A stretch of DNA of 64,000 bases, from sequence record NC_027349.1. One strand, 5' to 3'. Below are positions 4,727 to 39,512 of this stretch, in pieces. Source of the DNA: Escherichia phage HY01. A model generated the notes under the pieces. The model searched no databases. It saw only the letters and a list, made by a program, of their open reading frames with translations, and was not told where the DNA came from. Position 1 is the stretch's first letter. Each line of letters starts with the position of its first letter. The translations under genes and the position numbers were made by a program.

Positions 4727-4945
4727 TTATTTCTCTAATATAAAATAAAAATCATCATCTGTTAAATGATACCGATAGTTTAATTCTACACCATTAGATT
4801 TAAAAGCGGTATCATACGGATTTTCTGGATCAATATCAATGTCAAGAGCTAAAACTTCCCTGAGATACATTTTAAGTAAATAGGGAATAGCTTCAACTTC
4901 AGGTATTTCTTCCAAGAATCCGGAGAGGTTAATCGTTAGCCTCAT
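4727..4945 (-). CDS. Hypothetical protein (72 aa)
   Basis: ORF track; immediately downstream of gene 55. Confidence 0.5.
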
Positions 4946-5486
4946 ATAAAAAATCCAAACTAGGAGAATCGTCTACAACACTTTTCTTTTCAGCCCCCGG
5001 TGTTCTATAGGTTGATTCTTCGTAATGCGTCATTTTATCGTAGATGTCTTGAATAAAAGTTTCATCTACTAACGCAACCATATCGTCGTCACGACTGTCA
5101 TAGACATTGTGAACGAAGTAACTATATTTCTTTGCAACTTCCTTACGTTCTTTTTTAATACGTTGGACGAATGCATTAAAACAAGCTTGAGTTATATATG
5201 CATGTGGGTTTTTATATTTCGTTTCATCAAAATTATGAAGTCCCTTAATAGAAGCTTCTATACCATCTGCAATCATTTCTTGTTTCCAAGACTGGGTGTA
5301 TCCTGAAAAGTTGAAACGTTTAGATAAGCCTTCTGCAATAAGCATAATGGCTAATCCGATAGTATCATTCTGACGAACTACTTTATTTGGGTCTTTATTA
5401 TTTGCTAATTCTGTTTTCCAATCAATAATAGCTTGTAAAAGCTCTTTATTGTTTACGTAATTATATTTAGGCTTAGTTTCTGACAT
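4929..5486 (-). CDS. 55: Late-transcription sigma factor gp55
   Basis: Track ORF is 187 aa; start at second Met ([21 protein letters not shown]) gives 185 aa as in T4 gp55. Confidence 0.9.
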
Positions 5487-8505: not shown

Positions 8506-10319
8506 TGGTGTTTAACCCTATGCATGATTTCTTTATTTTTGCCAAGATTAAATCCGCGTTCGTTCGGATTTCCCAAATAGCCACATGTTCTTCTTATTGT
8601 GTTCATCTTTTTAGGATCAGTTTCTCCACAAATAGAACAAACAAATCCGTTTTCAGTAGGAGTCATTTCATGGGTACTTCCACACGTAAAACATTTATCT
8701 ACTGGCATATTAACACCAAAATAATCTAAATGTTGTGCAGCATAATCCCATACAGCCTCAAGGCCTTTTAAGTTATTTTTCATATCAGGAAGTTCAACAT
8801 AAGAAATGTGACCACCTGTCGCAATGAAATGATACGGTGCTTCGCGAGAAATCTTTTCAAATGGAGTAATATTTTCTTCTACTGAAACGTGGAAACTGTT
8901 AGTGTACCAGCCTTTATCAGTAACATCTTTTACACTTCCATATTTTTCGGTATCAAGTTTACAGAAGCGATAGCACAGGTTTTCAGCAGGAGTAGAATAC
9001 AAACTAAAAGCAAATCCGGTTCTTTCTGTCCATTGTTTAAGATGAGTATTCATTTTAGTTAAAATTTCTTGCCCAATATCACGACCGACAAGAATATTCA
9101 ATTCGTGAATACCAATGTATCCTAGGGACACTGAACTTCTACCGTTTTTAAATAACTCAATTATATCGTCATCAGGTTTAAGACGAACCCCGAATGCACC
9201 TTCTTGGTAAAGAATAGGAGCAACAGTAGCTTTAACTCCTTTTAAGGAACTAATTCTACACATCAATGCTTCAAAACATAAATCCATTCGCTCATTGAAC
9301 AATTCGGCAAATTTCTGTTCATTGAACTGTGTTCCAATATAAGAATCTAGCGCAATGCGAGGAAGATTCAGTGTTACAACACCAAGATTATTACGTCCAT
9401 CAAGAATTTCATTACCAGTCGAATCTTTCCATACACTCAAGAAACTACGACAACCCATTGGAGAAACAGGAATAGATGAACCGGTGATAGCTTTATTGTT
9501 CTTAGCCGAAATGATGTCAGGATACATTCTTTTACTTGCACACTCTAGAGCAAGCTGCTTAATATCATAGTTCGGATCGTCTTTATAAAGATTAACACCT
9601 TCTTCAACGAACATAACAAGTTTAGGGAAAATAGGAGTTATCCCGTCACGACCAAGGCCTTTAATACGATTTTTCAGAATTGCTTTCTGAATCATTCGTT
9701 CAGTCCAGTCAGTTCCCGTACCAAATGTAATTGTTACAAAAGGCGTTTGTCCGTTTGAACTAAAGAGAGTATTTACTTCATATTCATAAGCTTGGAATGC
9801 ATCGTATACGTCTTTTTCTGTTTTAGATTGGGCATAATTCAACGCATCAGCGATTTGCCATTTTTCTGCATCCTCAATATGTTTTGCATAGGTGCGTTTA
9901 ACATAAGGAGAAAGTACTTTATCTACATTCGCAAAAGTCGTTCCACCGTATTGATGGGAAGCAACCTGTGCAGTAATTTGTGCCATAATTGCAGTAGCAA
10001 CGCCGATTGATTTAGGAGTTTCAATCTGTGCATTACCGAGCTTAAATCCGTTCTCAAGCATTCCTTTTAAATCTACTAAACAGCAATTAGTAAATGGAAG
10101 AGCAGGGGAATAATCAATATCATGGAAATGAATAATTCCGCTTTCATGCGCTTTCATAATAAAAGACGGGACCATATTTTTGGCAATGTGTTTAGACACA
10201 ATACCAGCCATAAGGTCCCGTTGAGTTGGAAAAACACGAGAATCTTTATTAGCATTCTCGTTTAAAAGGTCTTTATTAGTTTTATGAATCAATCCTTCAA
10301 TTTCTTTTTCAATTGTCAT
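8502..10319 (-). CDS. nrdD: Anaerobic ribonucleoside-triphosphate reductase (glycyl radical enzyme), uninterrupted
   Basis: 605 aa continuous ORF; C-terminal Zn ribbon CFTCGSTHE...CSICG and glycyl-radical motif RTCGYLG. Confidence 0.95.
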   Translation of the reverse strand: MTIEKEIEGLIHKTNKDLLNENANKDSRVFPTQRDLMAGIVSKHIAKNMVPSFIMKAHESGIIHFHDIDYSPALPFTNCCLVDLKGMLENGFKLGNAQIETPKSIGVATAIMAQITAQVASHQYGGTTFANVDKVLSPYVKRTYAKHIEDAEKWQIADALNYAQSKTEKDVYDAFQAYEYEVNTLFSSNGQTPFVTITFGTGTDWTERMIQKAILKNRIKGLGRDGITPIFPKLVMFVEEGVNLYKDDPNYDIKQLALECASKRMYPDIISAKNNKAITGSSIPVSPMGCRSFLSVWKDSTGNEILDGRNNLGVVTLNLPRIALDSYIGTQFNEQKFAELFNERMDLCFEALMCRISSLKGVKATVAPILYQEGAFGVRLKPDDDIIELFKNGRSSVSLGYIGIHELNILVGRDIGQEILTKMNTHLKQWTERTGFAFSLYSTPAENLCYRFCKLDTEKYGSVKDVTDKGWYTNSFHVSVEENITPFEKISREAPYHFIATGGHISYVELPDMKNNLKGLEAVWDYAAQHLDYFGVNMPVDKCFTCGSTHEMTPTENGFVCSICGETDPKKMNTIRRTCGYLGNPNERGFNLGKNKEIMHRVKHQ

Positions 10320-10789
10320 TTTAAACTCTTTCTAAGCTGCTTCTTAAATGAAGCTATTAATTGTGTTTTAGTGTCAGATTCATTATATTCAAATCCTCTT
10401 TGAAGCATCTCAGCCATCATTTCCTCTTTTCCTAAACGAGAAAATTCCTTTGATTTATCTCCAACGAAGTTAGGGTGAATATTATTTTGGGTGTAATCGG
10501 ATTTTAAATAAGTAAGTAAATTTTCTAACCATTCAAGATAATCAACACCTTGTCCCTTTAAGCCAGAACGATTAAATTTATGCTTCATTTGACCTTCTGC
10601 AGCATTACAGAGATTACACAGCAACCCACGTACCTTTCCTGCTTTTGGTCCATTTAATTCATGGTCATGGTCAAGGTGATTAGCTTGAACATCAGGATTT
10701 AGTTCTCGTTGGCAAATTAAGCATTTACCGTTTTGTGCATTATAAAATTTTTGTTTTTCTTCTTTGTACAATTTGCCAGTCAATAACAT
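10316..10789 (-). CDS. 49: Endonuclease VII (Holliday junction resolvase) gp49
   Basis: 157 aa; Cys cluster CLICQ...CNLCN and HLDHDH motif; length as in T4 gp49; 4-nt overlap with nrdD. Confidence 0.92.
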   Translation of the reverse strand: MLLTGKLYKEEKQKFYNAQNGKCLICQRELNPDVQANHLDHDHELNGPKAGKVRGLLCNLCNAAEGQMKHKFNRSGLKGQGVDYLEWLENLLTYLKSDYTQNNIHPNFVGDKSKEFSRLGKEEMMAEMLQRGFEYNESDTKTQLIASFKKQLRKSLK

Positions 10790-11577: not shown

Positions 11578-11898
11578 TTATAGCGTAATCCATTCTCGTA
11601 TTGTCTGAATTACTACACGTTCACGGGGCTCGACTAGTTCAACAGTCGGAACTGCATAATACCAGTCAGAATGGTAAGAACCTGAGCGAGTTTCATTTAC
11701 AGACACATGAACGTTATGTTTTGGACTAAAATAAACGCACTGCCGATATTGGCATTTGCCGTCTTGTACCCAATCTTCTATTTCGATAGGTTTAAGATAA
11801 TCCGAAAAATCGAAATCATAATTTTCTGAAAATGCATCATGGTCTTCGATGATTTCACTCAGAACTGCATCAACATCTAATTTATTTTCAGTATTCAT
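11578..11898 (-). CDS. Hypothetical protein (106 aa)
   Basis: ORF track. Confidence 0.5.
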   Translation of the reverse strand: MNTENKLDVDAVLSEIIEDHDAFSENYDFDFSDYLKPIEIEDWVQDGKCQYRQCVYFSPKHNVHVSVNETRSGSYHSDWYYAVPTVELVEPRERVVIQTIREWITL

Positions 11899-12558: not shown

Positions 12559-12816
12559 TTATTCCTTAATTCCTAGTACTTGTTTAAAAGTCTCGTCGTA
12601 ATCAAGACTTTGACCTGTTTGTTCTTTATGTTTGTATATAATATCACTTACTTCTGATAGCATATTTTTATATGAACGAGTTAAAGCAGATTTAAGCACG
12701 CTGTATCTATCAGGAAATTTACCATGTTCATTATAATACGCTATTGCTAATTCACGGACTGCCTTTTCAGCAATCTCCATATATTCTTTACGCTTTTTCA
12801 TTTTCTTCTCGGTCAA
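12559..12816 (-). CDS. Hypothetical protein (85 aa)
   Basis: ORF track. Confidence 0.5.
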
Positions 12817-13105
12817 ATCGGTGTTTGCAATGACGACATTTATAACGAAGAATACTAGTCTGCCAATGAACTAATTGTACCTGTTCAGTACCGCATTCAG
12901 GACAACTAGGAACGTTTTTAGAAGCCCTTTCACGACGTTCAACCATAACCATAATGGCATCCCAAGCTGGAGGTTTAAAGTCTAAATCATCGCAACCATG
13001 AATCTTTCCACGCATTTCTAAATCGTCTTCTTCACCAGCCATAATAATTTTAATTAGACTGGAATTACTTGAAGCTGCAATATCTTCTAATAGACGCTTT
13101 TTCAT
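12788..13105 (-). CDS. Zinc-ribbon-containing small protein (105 aa)
   Basis: CPECG...CRHCKH (CxxC-x17-CxxC) at C-terminus. Confidence 0.5.
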
Positions 13106-14031
13106 TTCAATACCTCAATAGCATTACGTAAACCATTTGCTTTTGCATTAAGAGCTTTTAACAATTTAGTGTGTTCGGCAATCTGAGCTTCAACTTCAAC
13201 TAGTCGAGATTTGAGGTATTCACGTTCTTCGCTCAAGTTATCAACCTTTTCTACTTTAGGTTCTTTTACAACTGGCTTATATGTATTAGGGTTCTTCAGT
13301 TTAATTAGAATGCGTGAACTGTATAACATTGAACCATTATCTTCGGTTTCGTCATACATTTCTACTACGTCCATGATTTTTAACATCATGCGGAGTTTAT
13401 AAGATAACGAACGAATAGTTTTGTTGTGCTTATTAATTTCTCTAGAGTTCATGGTGCCGAGATTACGTGAGTAATAATAAGGAACCTGGATATTAATTAA
13501 TACTGATGAACCACCTGGCTTATGTGTTACTTCATCAGCAATAACCCAATCCTTAACATGAACTGTATTTGTACGGTCATCGCCCGCGGTAAATAGTTTG
13601 CGAGCATGCTTAAAAAGCATATTCACTTGGTCATTGAATTGACAAGTAAATTTATCAGCAAATTTAGTTTCAGGAATGGTAGATAACCAATCAGCCAAAT
13701 GGGTCTTTTTAACATCGTTAACAATAGTAAATTCAACCAAATCAGTTATAGATGTCTCAGATTTAATAAAGCTCGGCTTCATAAAGTTTTTAATGTTATC
13801 GCGAGCTACAGTAGAAGATAACATACGAGAACGTTTAAACCATTGAAGCAAATTGCCTAATGAATGAGAATAGGCGTTCTGAGTATCTTTACAGATATGA
13901 TTTTCCTGCCCAACATATTGAAGGAAATCACGAAGAATATTATTGATTACTGCTCTGTGCCCGATTTGATAATTACGGTGTTTAGTAATAAGACTGTCAA
14001 AATAATCAATATAATGTTTACGAGTTTTCAT
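13102..14031 (-). CDS. Hypothetical protein (309 aa) with C-terminal coiled coil; first of four tandem genes of similar architecture
   Basis: C-terminal heptad-like segment ...[44 protein letters not shown]. Confidence 0.6.
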   Translation of the reverse strand: MKTRKHYIDYFDSLITKHRNYQIGHRAVINNILRDFLQYVGQENHICKDTQNAYSHSLGNLLQWFKRSRMLSSTVARDNIKNFMKPSFIKSETSITDLVEFTIVNDVKKTHLADWLSTIPETKFADKFTCQFNDQVNMLFKHARKLFTAGDDRTNTVHVKDWVIADEVTHKPGGSSVLINIQVPYYYSRNLGTMNSREINKHNKTIRSLSYKLRMMLKIMDVVEMYDETEDNGSMLYSSRILIKLKNPNTYKPVVKEPKVEKVDNLSEEREYLKSRLVEVEAQIAEHTKLLKALNAKANGLRNAIEVLK

Positions 14032-14083
14032 GTTCTTCTCACTTGGTTAATGATTTATACTCCGAGCCATCCTTGGCTTTAAA

Positions 14084-15085
14084 TTACTTAATTAACTGTA
14101 AAGCTTGTTCAAGACGATCCAGGCGATTAACAGATTCTTCCCAAATCCTTTTAGCCTGCTCATATTCTTTCTGCGCTTTATTAGAAATTTCTAGAGCTTC
14201 TTTATAAGCTTTTTCTAATGCAATAACTTCTGGACGAATTTCTACCGATTCAGGTGAATCATCAAGATTATCCATTAGTTCCTCAAGGGTAGTTTCTTCT
14301 TTAGGGGTATTCACAATTTCCTCACATTTTTGTTGGTAAATTTCTTTATCAGTAAGTGAGTACGCACATTTCACTTCACGAAGACTAACTACAATTTTAT
14401 ATCCTTCCCAACCGCACATATTCTTAAAAGGATAAGTATGAATATTTTCTACTGTTTCCATACAAAGTAATGCGGTTTCTAATTGACGAGTTATAGTGCT
14501 AGCAATTGAGAAAAATTTATTAATATTCTTTTGGTTAGTTTCTGGTGTAAAAAATCCATAATTCACAAAAATAGATACTTTATTTTTATCAAGTTCATAT
14601 TCTTTTATGATAATCATATCAGAAGCCAAAGGATGAATTTGACGATAATCGCCATAACATAATTTAGAAGCTGATTTTAGAATCTGTCCTTTGAAAAGTC
14701 TGAAATTACTAATCCAACGACGAGTAAAAATATTCTCAGGGTCTTCTTTATTATTAAGATGATAAGAATTAACATCACCGAACCAATTATATCCTACTAC
14801 ATCTTTAGTTCGTTTAATTTCTTTCCCAAATTTACCAAGAATATCCCGATTAACCAAATATGAAAGAAGACGAGACTCTTTAAAGGTTTTCTTGATAACA
14901 TCTTTATCTACACGGCTAGAAATTTTACGAATTTCATGAATAAATTTAGTAGAAGAAACAATACTTGCATCAACACTATTGAGCCATTGATTGATAATAG
15001 AAAGAACGATATTTTGGCCAAACATCGGTATAGCTTTATCATCAATAACGCTATTAAATGATTTGATATATTCGTCACGAGTCAT
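14084..15085 (-). CDS. Hypothetical protein (about 333 aa) with C-terminal coiled coil
   Basis: Track ORF extends to 15136, but a GAGGAG site precedes the Met at 15085 (MTRDEYIKSF) and a promoter-like element overlaps the longer N-terminus. Confidence 0.6.
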   Translation of the reverse strand: MTRDEYIKSFNSVIDDKAIPMFGQNIVLSIINQWLNSVDASIVSSTKFIHEIRKISSRVDKDVIKKTFKESRLLSYLVNRDILGKFGKEIKRTKDVVGYNWFGDVNSYHLNNKEDPENIFTRRWISNFRLFKGQILKSASKLCYGDYRQIHPLASDMIIIKEYELDKNKVSIFVNYGFFTPETNQKNINKFFSIASTITRQLETALLCMETVENIHTYPFKNMCGWEGYKIVVSLREVKCAYSLTDKEIYQQKCEEIVNTPKEETTLEELMDNLDDSPESVEIRPEVIALEKAYKEALEISNKAQKEYEQAKRIWEESVNRLDRLEQALQLIK

Positions 15086-15113
15086 ATTAATCTCCTCAGT
15101 AGAAAGTAAGAAC

Positions 15114-15143
15114 ATTATACCACATCCTTGTGGCAAAGTAAAC
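15114..15143 (-). promoter_or_regulatory. T4-type early promoter-like element (GTTTAC...TATAAT)
   Basis: Minus-strand GTTTAC at 15143-15138, TATAAT at 15119-15114, 18-nt spacer. Confidence 0.4.
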
Positions 15144-16159
15144 TAGTTTAGTGCATTTAGTGCATTGTTCAGTTTAGAACGTTGCTTCGTAAGATTTTTG
15201 ACTTTTTCTTGAGCTTTTTCTAGCATCTTTTCAGCTTCTAACACTTCATTAGTTGCTTTAACTAGTTCATCATCTACTGCTTTAAGAGAATTCTCAATCG
15301 CATCTGCATGCCATTTTTCAACAGGTTTAAGACTCGGATTTTCAACAGGAAGAAAATTCACTTTATTGAATTTCCATGCATCCTTATTACCTGAACTATA
15401 CATCCAAAATTTAGGATCGTTTGATGAGTAATTGGATAAATTTAAATTTAAGTTATCTTGCACTTCTTGCTTTTTCTCTTGCGTGACTTCATCCTTTCTC
15501 AAAAAATCGTATTTAAATGAAACGATCATATCAAGTTCATATGTTGTTGTGTCTAATAAACGAGGTAAAATCTTAGACTGAACAGCGGCAACAACATCCA
15601 TATACTTAAATGCTTCTGTCAACTGCGATTTAAGGCATTCGCAAATTGAAAGAGAATTTTTTGTATTAGGTTTAAAGCTAATTCGTGCAGTTCTGTTATT
15701 TTCTTTTAATGGTCTTACTTCCATCTGAAGAGTATAACCATCAAATTTCAAGTTCTTTAAGTTAATATCAGAACCTTTTAATCGACTCGCAGTTGATAAA
15801 ATTTGCTTTAATTGTCTACGGAACAGAGCAATAAATCTCCATTCAATACGATAATGATTTGGATTGAAAAATCCAGATGATAAATCGACCTTACTTTGAC
15901 CAACGCCTTGAACAAATAAAGGATTTTTATAATCAATAGTTTTACAGAAATCGGTGAGTTGCTCACGAGCAGTCATTTGTGTAATATATCCCGCTTTACT
16001 AAAATTACGCACCCATTCACTGCTATTCGTATACTTAAAGTGATGAATAACACGATTAACTTTATCAGGGTCTAAATTATTTTCACACAAAAATGTCATA
16101 ACATCACAAGTATAACTGGCATTACGAACCATATCTTCAATTTGAGAACGAGTTTTCAT
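15143..16159 (-). CDS. Hypothetical protein (338 aa) with C-terminal coiled coil
   Basis: C-terminus ...ENSLKAVDDELVKATNEVLEAEKMLEKAQEKVKNLTKQRSKLNNALNALN. Confidence 0.6.
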   Translation of the reverse strand: MKTRSQIEDMVRNASYTCDVMTFLCENNLDPDKVNRVIHHFKYTNSSEWVRNFSKAGYITQMTAREQLTDFCKTIDYKNPLFVQGVGQSKVDLSSGFFNPNHYRIEWRFIALFRRQLKQILSTASRLKGSDINLKNLKFDGYTLQMEVRPLKENNRTARISFKPNTKNSLSICECLKSQLTEAFKYMDVVAAVQSKILPRLLDTTTYELDMIVSFKYDFLRKDEVTQEKKQEVQDNLNLNLSNYSSNDPKFWMYSSGNKDAWKFNKVNFLPVENPSLKPVEKWHADAIENSLKAVDDELVKATNEVLEAEKMLEKAQEKVKNLTKQRSKLNNALNALN

Positions 16160-16167
16160 AGTGTTCC

Positions 16168-17094
16168 TTAAGATTTAAGTAAATCAACAATTTTAATTAA
16201 TTTTTCACGCTCAGATTTAGCTTTATTACTCAATCCAGATAGTCTGAAAATTTCATCGTCATACTGTTGAATAGAAATATTCAGCTCTTCAATTTGCTTA
16301 TTAAAATAATCAATTTGTTCAGAATGTTTTTCATTACTACGAACTGGTACAGGTTTTGTAGGCAATTTAGTTGAACTGGATTCATCCGGGCGATAAATTA
16401 AAATACAACTTGAACCAATCGGGCATTTAGCACCAGACGTATATTCTAATGTTCCAGCTTCTTTTAAAACTTCAAAAGCTAAACAGAGATGATGCCCCAT
16501 ATTAGCATAATCTGTAGAGTGAGCTCTGATGTAATAATCATCTCCACGAATACTAAATTTAAAGCATTTAAGGTCTTCTGTATTATTGGTCTTAAAAATC
16601 ATTTGTTTATCTAGACCTTTAGCTAATCGAGCGCCTAATGCTAATAATCGTCTTTGATTTTCCCACAAATCCGCTATCATTTGATCGAATGATAATTTTG
16701 GCATCAGTCGACCATAAAGGTCATATCCTTTATTATAATTACGAAGGATTTCACTCGCGTTAATACGAGACAATGCTCCAATTTTATTAAGGGCTTTCAT
16801 AATGCGATTAGATAAACTCATTCCAGATCCGCTTGTTCGCTGCAAATGTTTTTCTAATCCAAATCCAATATCAACTTTAAACTTATCTAAAATTTCGGCA
16901 TGAACATCTTTATCAATAACATTCAAATCCAAAGTTGGGTTAAATCTATGAAAAAATTTATCTGGCTCTCCACGACGAAGTACAGTCCATTCATTCATCA
17001 TTTTTTTATTAACTAAAGATTTAATTACTGCATTGACATTATTAATTACTACTGACATATTTTCCTCACTCAATTTCAATTTTACTAAATACAC
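16168..17094 (-). CDS. Hypothetical protein (308 aa) with C-terminal coiled coil
   Basis: C-terminus ...QIDYFNKQIEELNISIQQYDDEIFRLSGLSNKAKSEREKLIKIVDLLKS. Confidence 0.6.
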   Translation of the reverse strand: MYLVKLKLSEENMSVVINNVNAVIKSLVNKKMMNEWTVLRRGEPDKFFHRFNPTLDLNVIDKDVHAEILDKFKVDIGFGLEKHLQRTSGSGMSLSNRIMKALNKIGALSRINASEILRNYNKGYDLYGRLMPKLSFDQMIADLWENQRRLLALGARLAKGLDKQMIFKTNNTEDLKCFKFSIRGDDYYIRAHSTDYANMGHHLCLAFEVLKEAGTLEYTSGAKCPIGSSCILIYRPDESSSTKLPTKPVPVRSNEKHSEQIDYFNKQIEELNISIQQYDDEIFRLSGLSNKAKSEREKLIKIVDLLKS

Positions 17095-17473
17095 AGAATA
17101 TGATTGAACAGACTACATAAGCACCGCACACAGATTGAACTAATACCATCCCAAAGAACCAAACAATATTATCAAACAATGTCTGTTTTACGTCGAAAGG
17201 ACGTAAACTTACAGTAATATTATCACCTTTTTCTATTGAAGAATACATCTCTGGGGAAATATATTCACTAAATCTATAACCGTCTTTGAGTTCATATACG
17301 GCAATAAACGATAAACTAGACCCTTTTCCTTGTGTTCCTGTAATAGTATTAACTACAGTAACATCATAATCTTTATAATGCATATAATCATTAATTGCGT
17401 AATAACCATATGCAACTACTACACATAAACAACATATCAATAAATTCAATCTTTTAATTATCAACTGTTTCAT
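17066..17473 (-). CDS. Membrane protein (135 aa), N- and C-terminal hydrophobic helices
   Basis: LLICCLCVVVAYGYYAI and FFGMVLVQSVCGAYVVCSIIFCVF segments. Confidence 0.55.
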   Translation of the reverse strand: MKQLIIKRLNLLICCLCVVVAYGYYAINDYMHYKDYDVTVVNTITGTQGKGSSLSFIAVYELKDGYRFSEYISPEMYSSIEKGDNITVSLRPFDVKQTLFDNIVWFFGMVLVQSVCGAYVVCSIIFCVFSKIEIE

Positions 17474-17528: not shown

Positions 17529-18056
17529 TTATGCGAGTACCGTCTTTAACCGTTCTTCAAACTTCCGAAGAGTATTTTGGCGTTCAGCTCTTTGCTTTTT
17601 GTAAGTTTCAATACGCTCTGAAATGAGAGTGTATCGTTCATTTACTGATTCTTTCATAAAATCAGGAATTTCACGAGAAGCTTTAATCTCATCAAATTTA
17701 TCAATAACAGCTTGCTCTTCAGCAATTAAGTTATCATACATTAAAATATCTTTCTTGATGAACTCAATATCTTCTTGAGTTACACGAGATAATTTAGATG
17801 CTTTATCCTTTTTGTACTGTTCGTTAGTATCACGAGACCAATGTAATGTACGATTTTTATTCGTATTCTTGTAAATTTCTACAATACCAATCTCATCGAT
17901 AATAACGATCCAATTCCAACGGGATTTATAAATTTGTCCTCCATCAACTGTGATTTCACCTCCGATTGAGATGTCATTAAAGAACTTGCTTTGTGCTTCA
18001 GATTTAAATTTACCATCGTTGTAATTTACCAAGTTGAAAATATCTTTAGCATTCAT
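17529..18056 (-). CDS. Hypothetical protein (175 aa) with C-terminal coiled coil
   Basis: ORF track; preceded by a consensus early promoter and RBS GGAGGAAC. Confidence 0.55.
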   Translation of the reverse strand: MNAKDIFNLVNYNDGKFKSEAQSKFFNDISIGGEITVDGGQIYKSRWNWIVIIDEIGIVEIYKNTNKNRTLHWSRDTNEQYKKDKASKLSRVTQEDIEFIKKDILMYDNLIAEEQAVIDKFDEIKASREIPDFMKESVNERYTLISERIETYKKQRAERQNTLRKFEERLKTVLA

Positions 18057-18520: not shown

Positions 18521-19501
18521 TTATTTCAGAAGAGTAACCTCAGCAATTTCTTCCCAACCGTTTTTGTCGGTCATAATAAAGTCAGCAAGATAAAGAGCAG
18601 TACGCAGTGAAACATTGCGTAAACGATTAACATTAACTTTCATCCATGATAATGCTTTATAAGTTTCTTCATCAGAAAGACCGCGCTTTTGCATCATGTC
18701 AGTTGAAAGAATAACATCTTCAACCCTGACCATAATTTCTTCATTAGTATGAACACCCAAATCCAAATAAACTGAGCGGGACACTAATGCTTGTAAGTGT
18801 GGAGCAAGTTTAGTACCACGGTCTAATTCGCGGTCAATGTCAACGTTTGTGATAAAAACAATCGTTCCTTTAAATTCAAACTCACGCTCAATGCCTTTTT
18901 CTTCTAAGTAAGAAGATGCAGTGCTCCAGCAGACTTTACGGGTTTCTCCGGTGTCCAGAGCGGCTTTTAGAAGATTAAGAATGTCCATATCAGAGAAAAC
19001 ATCCACATCATCAATCAAAAGGACAGAATTCTCTTCACGATTATTCCAAAGCTGTTCATAAAGACCAATACCAGAGATTTTACCATTAATGCTTTTATAT
19101 TCAATGTATCCAATATCATTTGCTTTATTTAAAGCTTTATCTAAAGAATACGTTTTACCAATACCTGCTGCGCCAGAGATAATTAATGAACGAATATTTC
19201 CATTAATAATACCGTTCGTCATCATTCCCATAACATTAAATCTTTTATTAATGCGGGTTTTCATATCTTCATATGATTCTTTAACTTCTTCAACTTTTAC
19301 ACCATCATATGAAATATCTGATTTGTAAACCCAAACACCGCGACGTTTACCGTCAATTTCAACAAAAACTTTACCATCTCCTTGTGCATCTACCGGAGCA
19401 TTATCTGGGAACCATTCGCCTAAGAGCTCAAAAGTTCCAGAGATTTCTTTACCAAAGTAGATACCCTTATTGATAGTTACAGTTTTCATTTTATTCTCCA
19501 A
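18521..19501 (-). CDS. P-loop NTPase (AAA-like ATPase), 326 aa
   Basis: Walker A SGAAGIGKT and Walker B VLLIDDVD. Confidence 0.7.
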   Translation of the reverse strand: MENKMKTVTINKGIYFGKEISGTFELLGEWFPDNAPVDAQGDGKVFVEIDGKRRGVWVYKSDISYDGVKVEEVKESYEDMKTRINKRFNVMGMMTNGIINGNIRSLIISGAAGIGKTYSLDKALNKANDIGYIEYKSINGKISGIGLYEQLWNNREENSVLLIDDVDVFSDMDILNLLKAALDTGETRKVCWSTASSYLEEKGIEREFEFKGTIVFITNVDIDRELDRGTKLAPHLQALVSRSVYLDLGVHTNEEIMVRVEDVILSTDMMQKRGLSDEETYKALSWMKVNVNRLRNVSLRTALYLADFIMTDKNGWEEIAEVTLLK

Positions 19502-19615: not shown

Positions 19616-20101
19616 TTATTCCATTTCTACTATATGCATGTTCTTTTTGCTATCAAAATATATGTTTTTAACTATTAACTCAGAATTAATTGGCAGTAAA
19701 AACTCTCTTTCATAATCTACCATACAAAGATTATCATAAAGCTTGTTAAGCTTATCATCGTCAGTTTGGCCAGATTCTTCAATTGCGATTAAATTTTCTA
19801 AAATGTCAATCATGGCAGTCGAATAGTCGAAAACGTTTGCATTTTTTAACACTACTAAAACATTAGTCATATAGCGTTCTGCCGCAAACGTTTCAGCTAT
19901 ATGAGACTCACTGCTAAAGGAAGTTATTCTTTTAAATTTGATTCTCCTATTAACTTCAAACTTATAAGATAGCACTTCCTCTATTGTAAGTCCTCTAAAA
20001 AGTATGTCTTTAATCTCAAGTTTGTCTTTAATGTAATCATTAACACGCTTATGATTAAAATCACTAATTTTGTTGCCAAGGCATTGCATTAAAATATGCA
20101 T
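19616..20101 (-). CDS. Hypothetical protein (161 aa)
   Basis: ORF track. Confidence 0.55.
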   Translation of the reverse strand: MHILMQCLGNKISDFNHKRVNDYIKDKLEIKDILFRGLTIEEVLSYKFEVNRRIKFKRITSFSSESHIAETFAAERYMTNVLVVLKNANVFDYSTAMIDILENLIAIEESGQTDDDKLNKLYDNLCMVDYEREFLLPINSELIVKNIYFDSKKNMHIVEME

Positions 20102-30089: not shown

Positions 30090-30563
30090 TTATTTGAATG
30101 ATTTAACGTACTGAATAGAACCTTTACTATTTACAAAGGCAATTTTACCATTTTTATTGTACATAGTAGCAGTACGCTGATAACCATAAGTTTGTTTACC
30201 AGATTGATAACCAACTAATGCGAAATTATCTTCGCCCATTTTATTCTGTTTAGCGCGGATGCGTTCATGACCGTGTGCCATAAGAACCTTAGCATCACCA
30301 GTTGAAATTGATCTACGAGTTTTTTCATCTTCAACTGTATTAACAAAGTCGTCAAATGAATCAAATTTAGCATGGGATTTATTATACAGTTTTCCATCTA
30401 CTGCATAATTATATCCCTGTACATCCATCTCAACTTCTGTACCATCATCCAATACAGCAGTGATTTTTTGACCTTTTTTAAATTTCAAAAGATCAGTAAA
30501 AGATTCAGCAATAATTTGAGAATTAATAGCTGCTTCAGTGATAAATTCTTGATATGTTTTCAT
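30090..30563 (-). CDS. Internal-protein-like capsid-targeted protein (157 aa)
   Basis: N-terminal capsid-targeting sequence MKTYQEFITEAAINSQIIAE with prohead-protease-type L/I-x-E sites. Confidence 0.65.
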   Translation of the reverse strand: MKTYQEFITEAAINSQIIAESFTDLLKFKKGQKITAVLDDGTEVEMDVQGYNYAVDGKLYNKSHAKFDSFDDFVNTVEDEKTRRSISTGDAKVLMAHGHERIRAKQNKMGEDNFALVGYQSGKQTYGYQRTATMYNKNGKIAFVNSKGSIQYVKSFK

Positions 30564-39224: not shown

Positions 39225-39512
39225 TTACAAAAGATTTTTAGCAATAATCTTGAGATGTGCCGCAGAAATGTGTTTAGCTTTAAACAACGCAGTTTCTTCA
39301 GCAGGAGAGATAATGATTGTAGCACCATCCTTTTTAGCAGACCACCCATCACCTAGGTAAACAGTACCTTTGATTTCTTCGCCATCAACCAAGCTAATCA
39401 TTGGTTTACCTTCTCGTCCTTTATTTGCTTTAATAACTTCAGAAGTAAGAGTAGCTTCGGTAATGGTAGAAACCGGGGTAGTTGTAGAAGTAAACTCTTT
39501 GAAAGTTTTCAT
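39225..39512 (-). CDS. ipI: Internal protein I-like capsid-targeted protein
   Basis: 95 aa (length of T4 IPI precursor); N-terminal capsid-targeting sequence MKTFKEFTSTTTPVSTITEATLTSE with L/I-x-E sites; position upstream of 57B. Confidence 0.7.
   Translation of the reverse strand: MKTFKEFTSTTTPVSTITEATLTSEVIKANKGREGKPMISLVDGEEIKGTVYLGDGWSAKKDGATIIISPAEETALFKAKHISAAHLKIIAKNLL

Follow-up and report, generated by a model that had tools for sequence, protein, structure and literature searches.

The closest described relative of the proteins examined here is NrdC.5 of phage T4. A T4 deletion clone is unable to plate on ECOR17 or on MG1655 with the dsr1 gene of ECOR17 (Srikant et al. 2022, PMC9391042), and plasmid-borne T4 nrdC.5 alone restores plating of the deletion phage on Dsr1 cells (Srikant, Guegler, Laub, eLife 2022, PMC9391042). 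We analyzed the gene array nrdC.3 to nrdC.6 in a 64,000-nucleotide stretch of Escherichia phage HY01 (NC_027349.1), called the window below, whose sequence is 100% identical to that of Escherichia phage PEC04, a T4-like Tequatrovirus. The window NrdC.5 is the orthologue of the T4 protein, with 96% identity and the identical position between nrdC.4 and nrdC.6; it matches DUF7235 over its full length (residues 1 to 338; 408.9 bits, cut-off 30), and for this gene the two systems do not differ. What is new here is that nrdC.3, nrdC.4, and nrdC.6 are paralogs of this anti-Dsr1 gene and encode proteins of the same architecture. T4 gene names were transferred from phage ime09 and other records annotated with T4 names.

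A second published activity belongs to a gene close to the array. The HIDEN-SEQ preprint (10.1101/2025.11.20.689424) reports that Bas37_0203 inhibits Druantia type III; by the gene table of that preprint and the KarlGJung record, bas37_0203 is the nrdC.8 orthologue. The bas37_0203 gene lies at MZ501089 124393-124920, and its product is identical to the window NrdC.8 at 174 of 175 residues (D122N). Both have a long heptad helix at the end, as the initial annotation had noticed for this fifth protein of the region. Unlike NrdC.3 to NrdC.6, they are only 175 amino acids long and have a different, small N-terminal domain. Profile comparison of NrdC.8 with the four larger proteins gave no significant sequence link, and we regard NrdC.8 as a shorter, distinct protein whose similar tail may be convergent.

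Two further systems invite comparison. DSAD1 of SPbeta-like phages is, like NrdC.5, a phage protein that neutralizes a defense-associated sirtuin, and it acts by direct binding. Unlike NrdC.5 it targets DSR2, not Dsr1, and the two share no sequence similarity, which makes the likeness one of analogy only. Searches of PDB sequences with NrdC.5 and the family profile, which covered the DSR2-DSAD1 complexes, returned no match to those complexes and nothing at an expect value (E) of ≤0.1 except an SMC coiled coil.

The T4 internal proteins IPI, IPII, and IPIII, which are anti-restriction proteins, resemble NrdC.3 to NrdC.6 in being an accessory anti-defense set with one conserved terminal module on divergent bodies. 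Their module is an N-terminal capsid-targeting sequence (MKTYQEFI.E), and they are packaged and injected, whereas the module of NrdC.3 to NrdC.6 is a C-terminal coiled coil. A capsid-targeting sequence in NrdC.3 to NrdC.6 was considered and rejected; the targeting motif and the cleavage site are absent. NrdC.3 begins MKTRKHYIDY and NrdC.5 MKTRSQIEDM, so that only MKT matches the motif, and such starts are frequent across the window. N termini that do look capsid targeting, typical of T4 internal proteins, occur elsewhere in the window at 30090-30563 (MKTYQEFITEA) and 39225-39512 (MKTFKEFTST).

Four paralogs with a common architecture

The initial annotation described four consecutive, co-oriented genes, which we confirm on the minus strand as nrdC.3, nrdC.4, nrdC.5, and nrdC.6 (Table 1). 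Their products share one architecture: an alpha/beta core of about 220 to 250 residues, a flexible linker rich in proline, and a run of about seven heptads reaching the C terminus. In NrdC.3, for example, a core of about 240 residues is followed by a linker containing KPV and then by seven heptads reaching the C terminus. A K/T-P-V motif lies 57 to 62 residues before the C terminus.

It had been claimed that the N-terminal 250 or so residues of these proteins lack detectable similarity, and that a shared C-terminal module sits on unrelated N-terminal domains. Our comparisons contradict both statements. NrdC.3 and NrdC.4 share 25% identity across 226 residues (BLASTP E of 1.6e-6), and both match phrog_1435 end to end. 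For more sensitive comparisons, family alignments were built from Tequatrovirus, Mosigvirus, Gaprivervirus, and Dhakavirus loci, and the linker and coiled coil were cut off before the cores were aligned with hhalign. The core-only comparison gave probabilities of 97.6% for the NrdC.3 and NrdC.4 families, 71% (E of 3.7e-5) for the NrdC.4 and NrdC.5 families, and 82.6% (E of 1e-5) for the pooled NrdC.3/4 alignment against NrdC.5.

Intermediate sequences came from a library of 1.84 billion cluster representatives, which we searched with a profile made of NrdC.5 relatives together with the window NrdC.3 and NrdC.4; the search yielded just 22 proteins at an E of ≤1e-3. One protein from the Klebsiella phage vB_Kpn_F48 group (P0206) matched the NrdC.3, NrdC.4, and NrdC.5 family profiles at 79%, 85%, and 96%, respectively. 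Another (P0214) was found by the NrdC.3/4/5 profile at a library-wide E of 1.6e-4, with its strongest stretch within the core, and also matched the NrdC.6 family (hidden Markov model [HMM] score of 48.5 bits; hhalign, 96.6% over 254 columns). The bridge to NrdC.6 is this single sequence, from a 1.9-kilobase contig.

AlphaFold2 models were built from the family alignments for two of the proteins, NrdC.5 and NrdC.6. In both, the elements follow one order, HH-EE-H-EE (helices, hairpin, long helix, hairpin), and then come a linker and a terminal helix. Both models matched the same two BFVD entries, A0A1V0DXL6 of Yersinia phage fHe-Yen9-01 (E of 6.4e-6 for NrdC.5 and 7.3e-4 for NrdC.6) and A0A1Z1LY96 of Serratia phage CBH8 (1.3e-5 and 6.9e-3). 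In a joint MAFFT alignment of the four families, the core motifs "(L/I)(S/T)..A...L.N(F/Y).K" and "R..(L/I)L..A.RL..G.D" are aligned column by column, and so is the tail. Judged by these sequence comparisons, nrdC.3 to nrdC.6 are whole-length paralogs of one diverged family rather than domain shuffles.

Searches of the array proteins against Pfam, NCBIfam, and PADLOC returned DUF7235 for NrdC.5 and only subthreshold noise for the others. The initial annotation had named matches to well-characterized enzymes as a finding that would refute it; none was found for the array proteins, and we dropped an enzyme or known-domain identity for NrdC.3 to NrdC.6, with no enzyme or solved-structure relative in the searches.

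The C-terminal coiled coils, which the initial annotation had recognized, are real and far beyond chance. When the last 60 residues of the 83 putative genes of the window were ranked by an ad hoc, uncalibrated heptad score, NrdC.5, NrdC.3, NrdC.6, and NrdC.8 took ranks 1 to 4 and NrdC.4 took rank 6. Taking four proline-free heptads with hydrophobic residues at a and d as the minimum for a coiled coil, all four array proteins have one, with a conserved glycine break in NrdC.6. NrdC.3, NrdC.4, and NrdC.5 have seven unbroken heptads in an identical register counted from the C terminus; NrdC.6 and NrdC.8 are in the same register with one additional terminal residue. The leucine-rich ending that had been attributed to every member was only partly borne out. 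Written as hydrophobic-x-x-[ALIV]-hydrophobic-x-x-hydrophobic-x(1,2)-stop, the pattern occurs in 5 of 101 open reading frames (ORFs) of the window (shuffled expectation, 0.86), 4 of which are nrdC.3 to nrdC.6, but NrdC.5 alone keeps it strictly, and NrdC.6 and NrdC.8 are looser.

The structure models contain a long, solvent-exposed terminal helix in both NrdC.5 and NrdC.6, preceded in each by a low-confidence linker. In the NrdC.5 model, the core spans residues 57 to 222, the disordered linker residues 223 to 279, and the helix residues 280 to 337, with a predicted local distance difference test (pLDDT) value of 70 to 90 in the core. In the NrdC.6 model, C-terminal helices occupy residues 246 to 272 and 278 to 295.

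Conservation, selection, and gene exchange

In all four families the tail is better conserved between clades than the core (73 versus 59, 64 versus 46, 51 versus 36, and 58 versus 34% identity). Pairwise ratios of nonsynonymous to synonymous substitution rates (dN/dS) among PEC04, T4, and Bas37 range from 0.07 to 0.27 for nrdC.3 to nrdC.6 and from 0 to 0.05 for nrdC, nrdC.8, nrdC.9, and nrdC.10. Selection on the array is purifying but more relaxed than that on nrdC and nrdC.8 to nrdC.10.

The window NrdC.3 is only 61% identical to its T4 copy, with a synonymous divergence (dS) of about 1.3, whereas the flanking genes are 95 to 100% identical (dS of 0.1 to 0.25). This difference indicates that recombination replaced the allele rather than that the locus evolved quickly. 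Two nrdC.3 allelic types occur within Tequatrovirus; the window and Bas37 share one, and T4 has the other. Among the array genes we found no DNA repeats of recombination size, and at the DNA level nrdC.3 and nrdC.5 share only the start-codon region, GAAC ATG AAA ACT CGT.

Gene content varies as well. Phage ACG-C40 has lost nrdC.4 entirely, together with most of both nrdC.5 and nrdC.3; at 4805-5216 of its sequence, this natural deletion fuses the 5' part of nrdC.5 with the 3' part of nrdC.3. Other rearranged members turned up in the searches: a chimera of NrdC.5 residues 146 to 270 and NrdC.3 residues ~135 to 309 (P0057), and a 378-residue NrdC.6 of Shigella phage Sf25 (P0089) with an internal tandem duplication of residues 177 to 259. 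A metagenome contig of 803 bp (P0088; ENA contig k141_89665) carries the final 53 codons of nrdC.5 plus the beginning of nrdC.4, with 94% nucleotide identity to window positions 15305-14981, fused to 478 nucleotides of unrelated sequence; the resulting 120-residue N terminus has no match in phage records. This contig may represent either a real tail swap or an assembly chimera, and we set it aside.

Distribution among T4-like phages

The NrdC.3-6 family is restricted to T4-like phages (Straboviridae): in word-indexed and exhaustive searches, matches were confined to these phages and their metagenomic relatives. Tequatrovirus genomes have four copies, and Mosigvirus, Gaprivervirus, and Dhakavirus genomes have three each.

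Genes of the same size and with the same tail also occur between nrdC.10 and nrdC in other phages, with two in tandem in Acinetobacter phage Acj61, both of them Foldseek matches of the NrdC.6 model, and one each in Klebsiella phage VIPKPNOM02 and Enterobacter phage KMB19. Yersinia phage fHe-Yen9-01 has two such genes in this interval, gp94 (292 amino acids; 9459-10337) and gp111 (313 amino acids; 16382-17323). These two lie about 6 kilobases apart and are not in tandem; from its size, gp111 seems to be the protein A0A1V0DXL6, which both of our models matched in BFVD. The Aeromonas phage that we examined has no such gene in the nrdC.10-nrdC interval. The family HMMs did not match the look-alike genes of the Acinetobacter, Klebsiella, Enterobacter, and Yersinia phages, and the kinship of these genes is argued from size, position, tail, and, for some, Foldseek matches. 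Across genera, the copy number of the family ranges from one to four.

An anti-defense island

The array lies among other genes with published anti-defense activity. nrdC.1 is reported as a Septu inhibitor in the HIDEN-SEQ preprint (10.1101/2025.11.20.689424), and Gp49.2 is reported as an inhibitor of OLD (2026 paper, PMC13096335); the products of both genes had no Pfam match. Given the published activities of 49.2, nrdC.1, nrdC.5, and nrdC.8, the segment from about 11.5 to 18 kilobases of the window is therefore an anti-defense island. The initial annotation had guessed at anti-defense or host-takeover factors and held that the block had no assigned function. The guess was a good one, since T4 nrdC.5 counters Dsr1 and the NrdC.8 orthologue is reported to inhibit Druantia III, and those same reports make the second statement out of date. 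In the collection of papers that we searched, there were no later ones on the mechanism of NrdC.5 or on NrdC.3, NrdC.4, or NrdC.6.

The HIDEN-SEQ preprint finds all of nrdC.2 to nrdC.11 nonessential in T4 (10.1101/2025.11.20.689424). The array genes are dispensable, and early and middle promoters drive their transcription. Immediately upstream of nrdC.4, at about 15142-15114, is a T4 early promoter (GTGGTATAAT), and a MotA-type middle promoter (GCTTTA-N13-TATAAT) lies upstream of nrdC.7. Early promoters are also found upstream of nrdC.8 and nrdC.10.

Discussion

We propose, with a probability of roughly 55%, that nrdC.3 to nrdC.6 are a family of paralogs, found only in T4-like phages, that encode counter-defense binders with diverging N-terminal domains and oligomerizing coiled coils. 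NrdC.3, NrdC.4, and NrdC.6 would share the counter-defense role of NrdC.5, each paralog neutralizing a different host immunity protein, presumably bound directly by the N-terminal domain, which diverges fast. The coiled coil, as the more conserved part, would serve as an oligomerization device, assembling a homo-oligomer with higher avidity for oligomeric defense proteins. We favor paralog-specific homo-oligomers because the tails differ strongly between paralogs, the copy number varies, and NrdC.5 complements by itself. The conservation, length, and register of the tail fit a selected role for it without identifying that role, and its stronger conservation, together with the equal length and register, may leave room for a common partner or for mixed bundles.

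Several points weigh against this proposal. No experiment assigns NrdC.3, NrdC.4, or NrdC.6 a target, and the accessible text of the HIDEN-SEQ preprint gives no significant conditional phenotype for nrdC.3, nrdC.4, or nrdC.6 (10.1101/2025.11.20.689424). That NrdC.5 binds Dsr1 directly is our assumption, and the homo-oligomeric bundle is a predicted role of the tail. Positive selection on the array genes was not detected, all pairwise dN/dS values being <1. Model confidence is moderate (overall pLDDT of 63 for NrdC.5 and 71 for NrdC.6), and the terminal helix of NrdC.6 is interrupted at the conserved glycine, where it could fold back as a hairpin and not run on as one coiled coil. The case for NrdC.6 as a member depends on a single bridging sequence plus indirect evidence from structure; in direct hhalign comparisons its core did not match those of NrdC.3, NrdC.4, and NrdC.5 significantly (E of 0.03 to 0.2).

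Host physiology is modulated by many of the uncharacterized early genes of T4. In the same way, NrdC.3, NrdC.4, and NrdC.6 could serve in host takeover or housekeeping, with targets such as the nucleoid, transcription, or metabolism, and NrdC.5 alone would have been recruited to immunity evasion. We consider this unlikely, if the most credible of the other explanations. It would agree with the lack of a conditional phenotype in the accessible preprint text and with the purifying selection seen here, which has no sign of positive selection. However, the three proteins share both family and architecture with a proven counter-defense protein, and the same block holds four genes with published anti-defense activity. 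The presence/absence variation and allele replacement among close relatives are, moreover, typical of accessory arms-race genes.

More doubtful still is the idea, close to that of the initial annotation, that the tail is a common docking module through which distinct N-terminal effectors all reach the same partner, from host or phage. The features of the tail that lend themselves to this idea are its conservation relative to the core in all four families, polar helix positions that are invariant within families, and the equality of length and register in all members; the tails of NrdC.3 and NrdC.5 are also alike (hhalign E of 2.9e-5; reversed control, 0.06). Most other pairs of tails were nonsignificant, however, and such strong differences between paralogs fit paralog-specific homo-oligomers better. 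The N-terminal domains are homologous rather than diverse effectors, no partner is known, and plasmid-borne NrdC.5 alone is sufficient against Dsr1, although a host partner could still be involved.

We would give equally little credence to a combined arrangement in which the N-terminal domain is a new, evolvable immunity-binding scaffold and the conserved tail, rather than oligomerizing passively, is a functional module that might dock every paralog on one host or phage hub or build mixed bundles. If this were true, the array would be a modular, multispecific anti-defense platform, and behind each of NrdC.3, NrdC.4, and NrdC.6 there would be a defense system that has not yet been paired with its inhibitor.

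Least probable is hetero-oligomerization of the paralogs through their coiled coils into one multiheaded complex covering several targets, since the common seven-heptad length and register and the adjacency and cotranscription of the genes from early and middle promoters, which would suit it, stand against a copy number of one to four between genera, the natural deletion in ACG-C40, the independent exchange of NrdC.3 alleles, and complementation by NrdC.5 alone.

If our proposal of separate counter-defense binders is right, the paralogy would explain both the number of genes and the allele variation between close relatives, and it would bear on the host range of therapeutic T4-like phages. Even in T4, the reference phage, the majority of early accessory genes are without an assigned role; the present analysis nominates three concrete candidate inhibitors, NrdC.3, NrdC.4, and NrdC.6, with a defined architecture. 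The advance is incremental, as the genes were known and the anti-defense role of the block was partly published; the new element is their union in one superfamily of four.

Gene coordinates and neighboring genes

On the minus strand, the array is located downstream of nrdC.10 and upstream of nrdC.2, nrdC.1, and nrdC (Table 1). The sizes initially given for the four products, 308 to 350 amino acids, hold for NrdC.3, NrdC.4, and NrdC.5 and fail for NrdC.6. The most likely start of nrdC.6 is the ATG at 17058, which has a GAGG Shine-Dalgarno sequence; the GTG at 17094 chosen initially is disfavored because it overlaps nrdC.7. The start assigned to nrdC.4, the ATG at 15085, is preceded by a GAGGAG Shine-Dalgarno sequence and is sound.

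Table 1. Genes of the nrdC.3-nrdC.6 array and its surroundings in the window
Gene	Coordinates	Strand	Length (amino acids)	Remarks
49.2	11578-11898			
nrdC.1	12559-12801			
nrdC.2	12788-13105			zinc-ribbon protein; phrog_1474
nrdC.3	13102-14031	-	309	phrog_1435 over full length, E 3.6e-116; C terminus ...LRNAIEVLK
nrdC.4	14084-15085	-	333	phrog_1435 end to end, E 4.1e-167
nrdC.5	15143-16159	-	338	Pfam DUF7235 (PF23882); orthologue of the T4 anti-Dsr1 factor
nrdC.6	16168-17058	-	296	phrog_2257; homologues carry PF26899
nrdC.7	17066-17473	-	135	predicted membrane protein; outside the nrdC.3-6 family; between the array and nrdC.8
nrdC.8	17529-18056	-	175	small N-terminal domain and long C-terminal heptad helix
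nrdC.10	18521-19489			AAA-type ATPase
ORF	19616-20101		161	between nrdC.10 and nrdC.11

The nrdC.2 product has two CxxC pairs. A phrog_1474 gene is directly downstream of the coiled-coil gene in the Klebsiella phage too, and in the Enterobacter phage a gene of nrdC.2-like size occupies the equivalent position next to the coiled-coil gene. The 161-residue ORF is absent from T4 and had no Pfam match; the ACG-C40 counterpart carries the annotation ModB-like ADP-ribosylase. The conservation of nrdC.10 is far above that of the neighboring genes, with identities of 100% within Tequatrovirus, about 65% to Acinetobacter phages, and 45% to Vibrio phages, and jumbo phages have this gene too.

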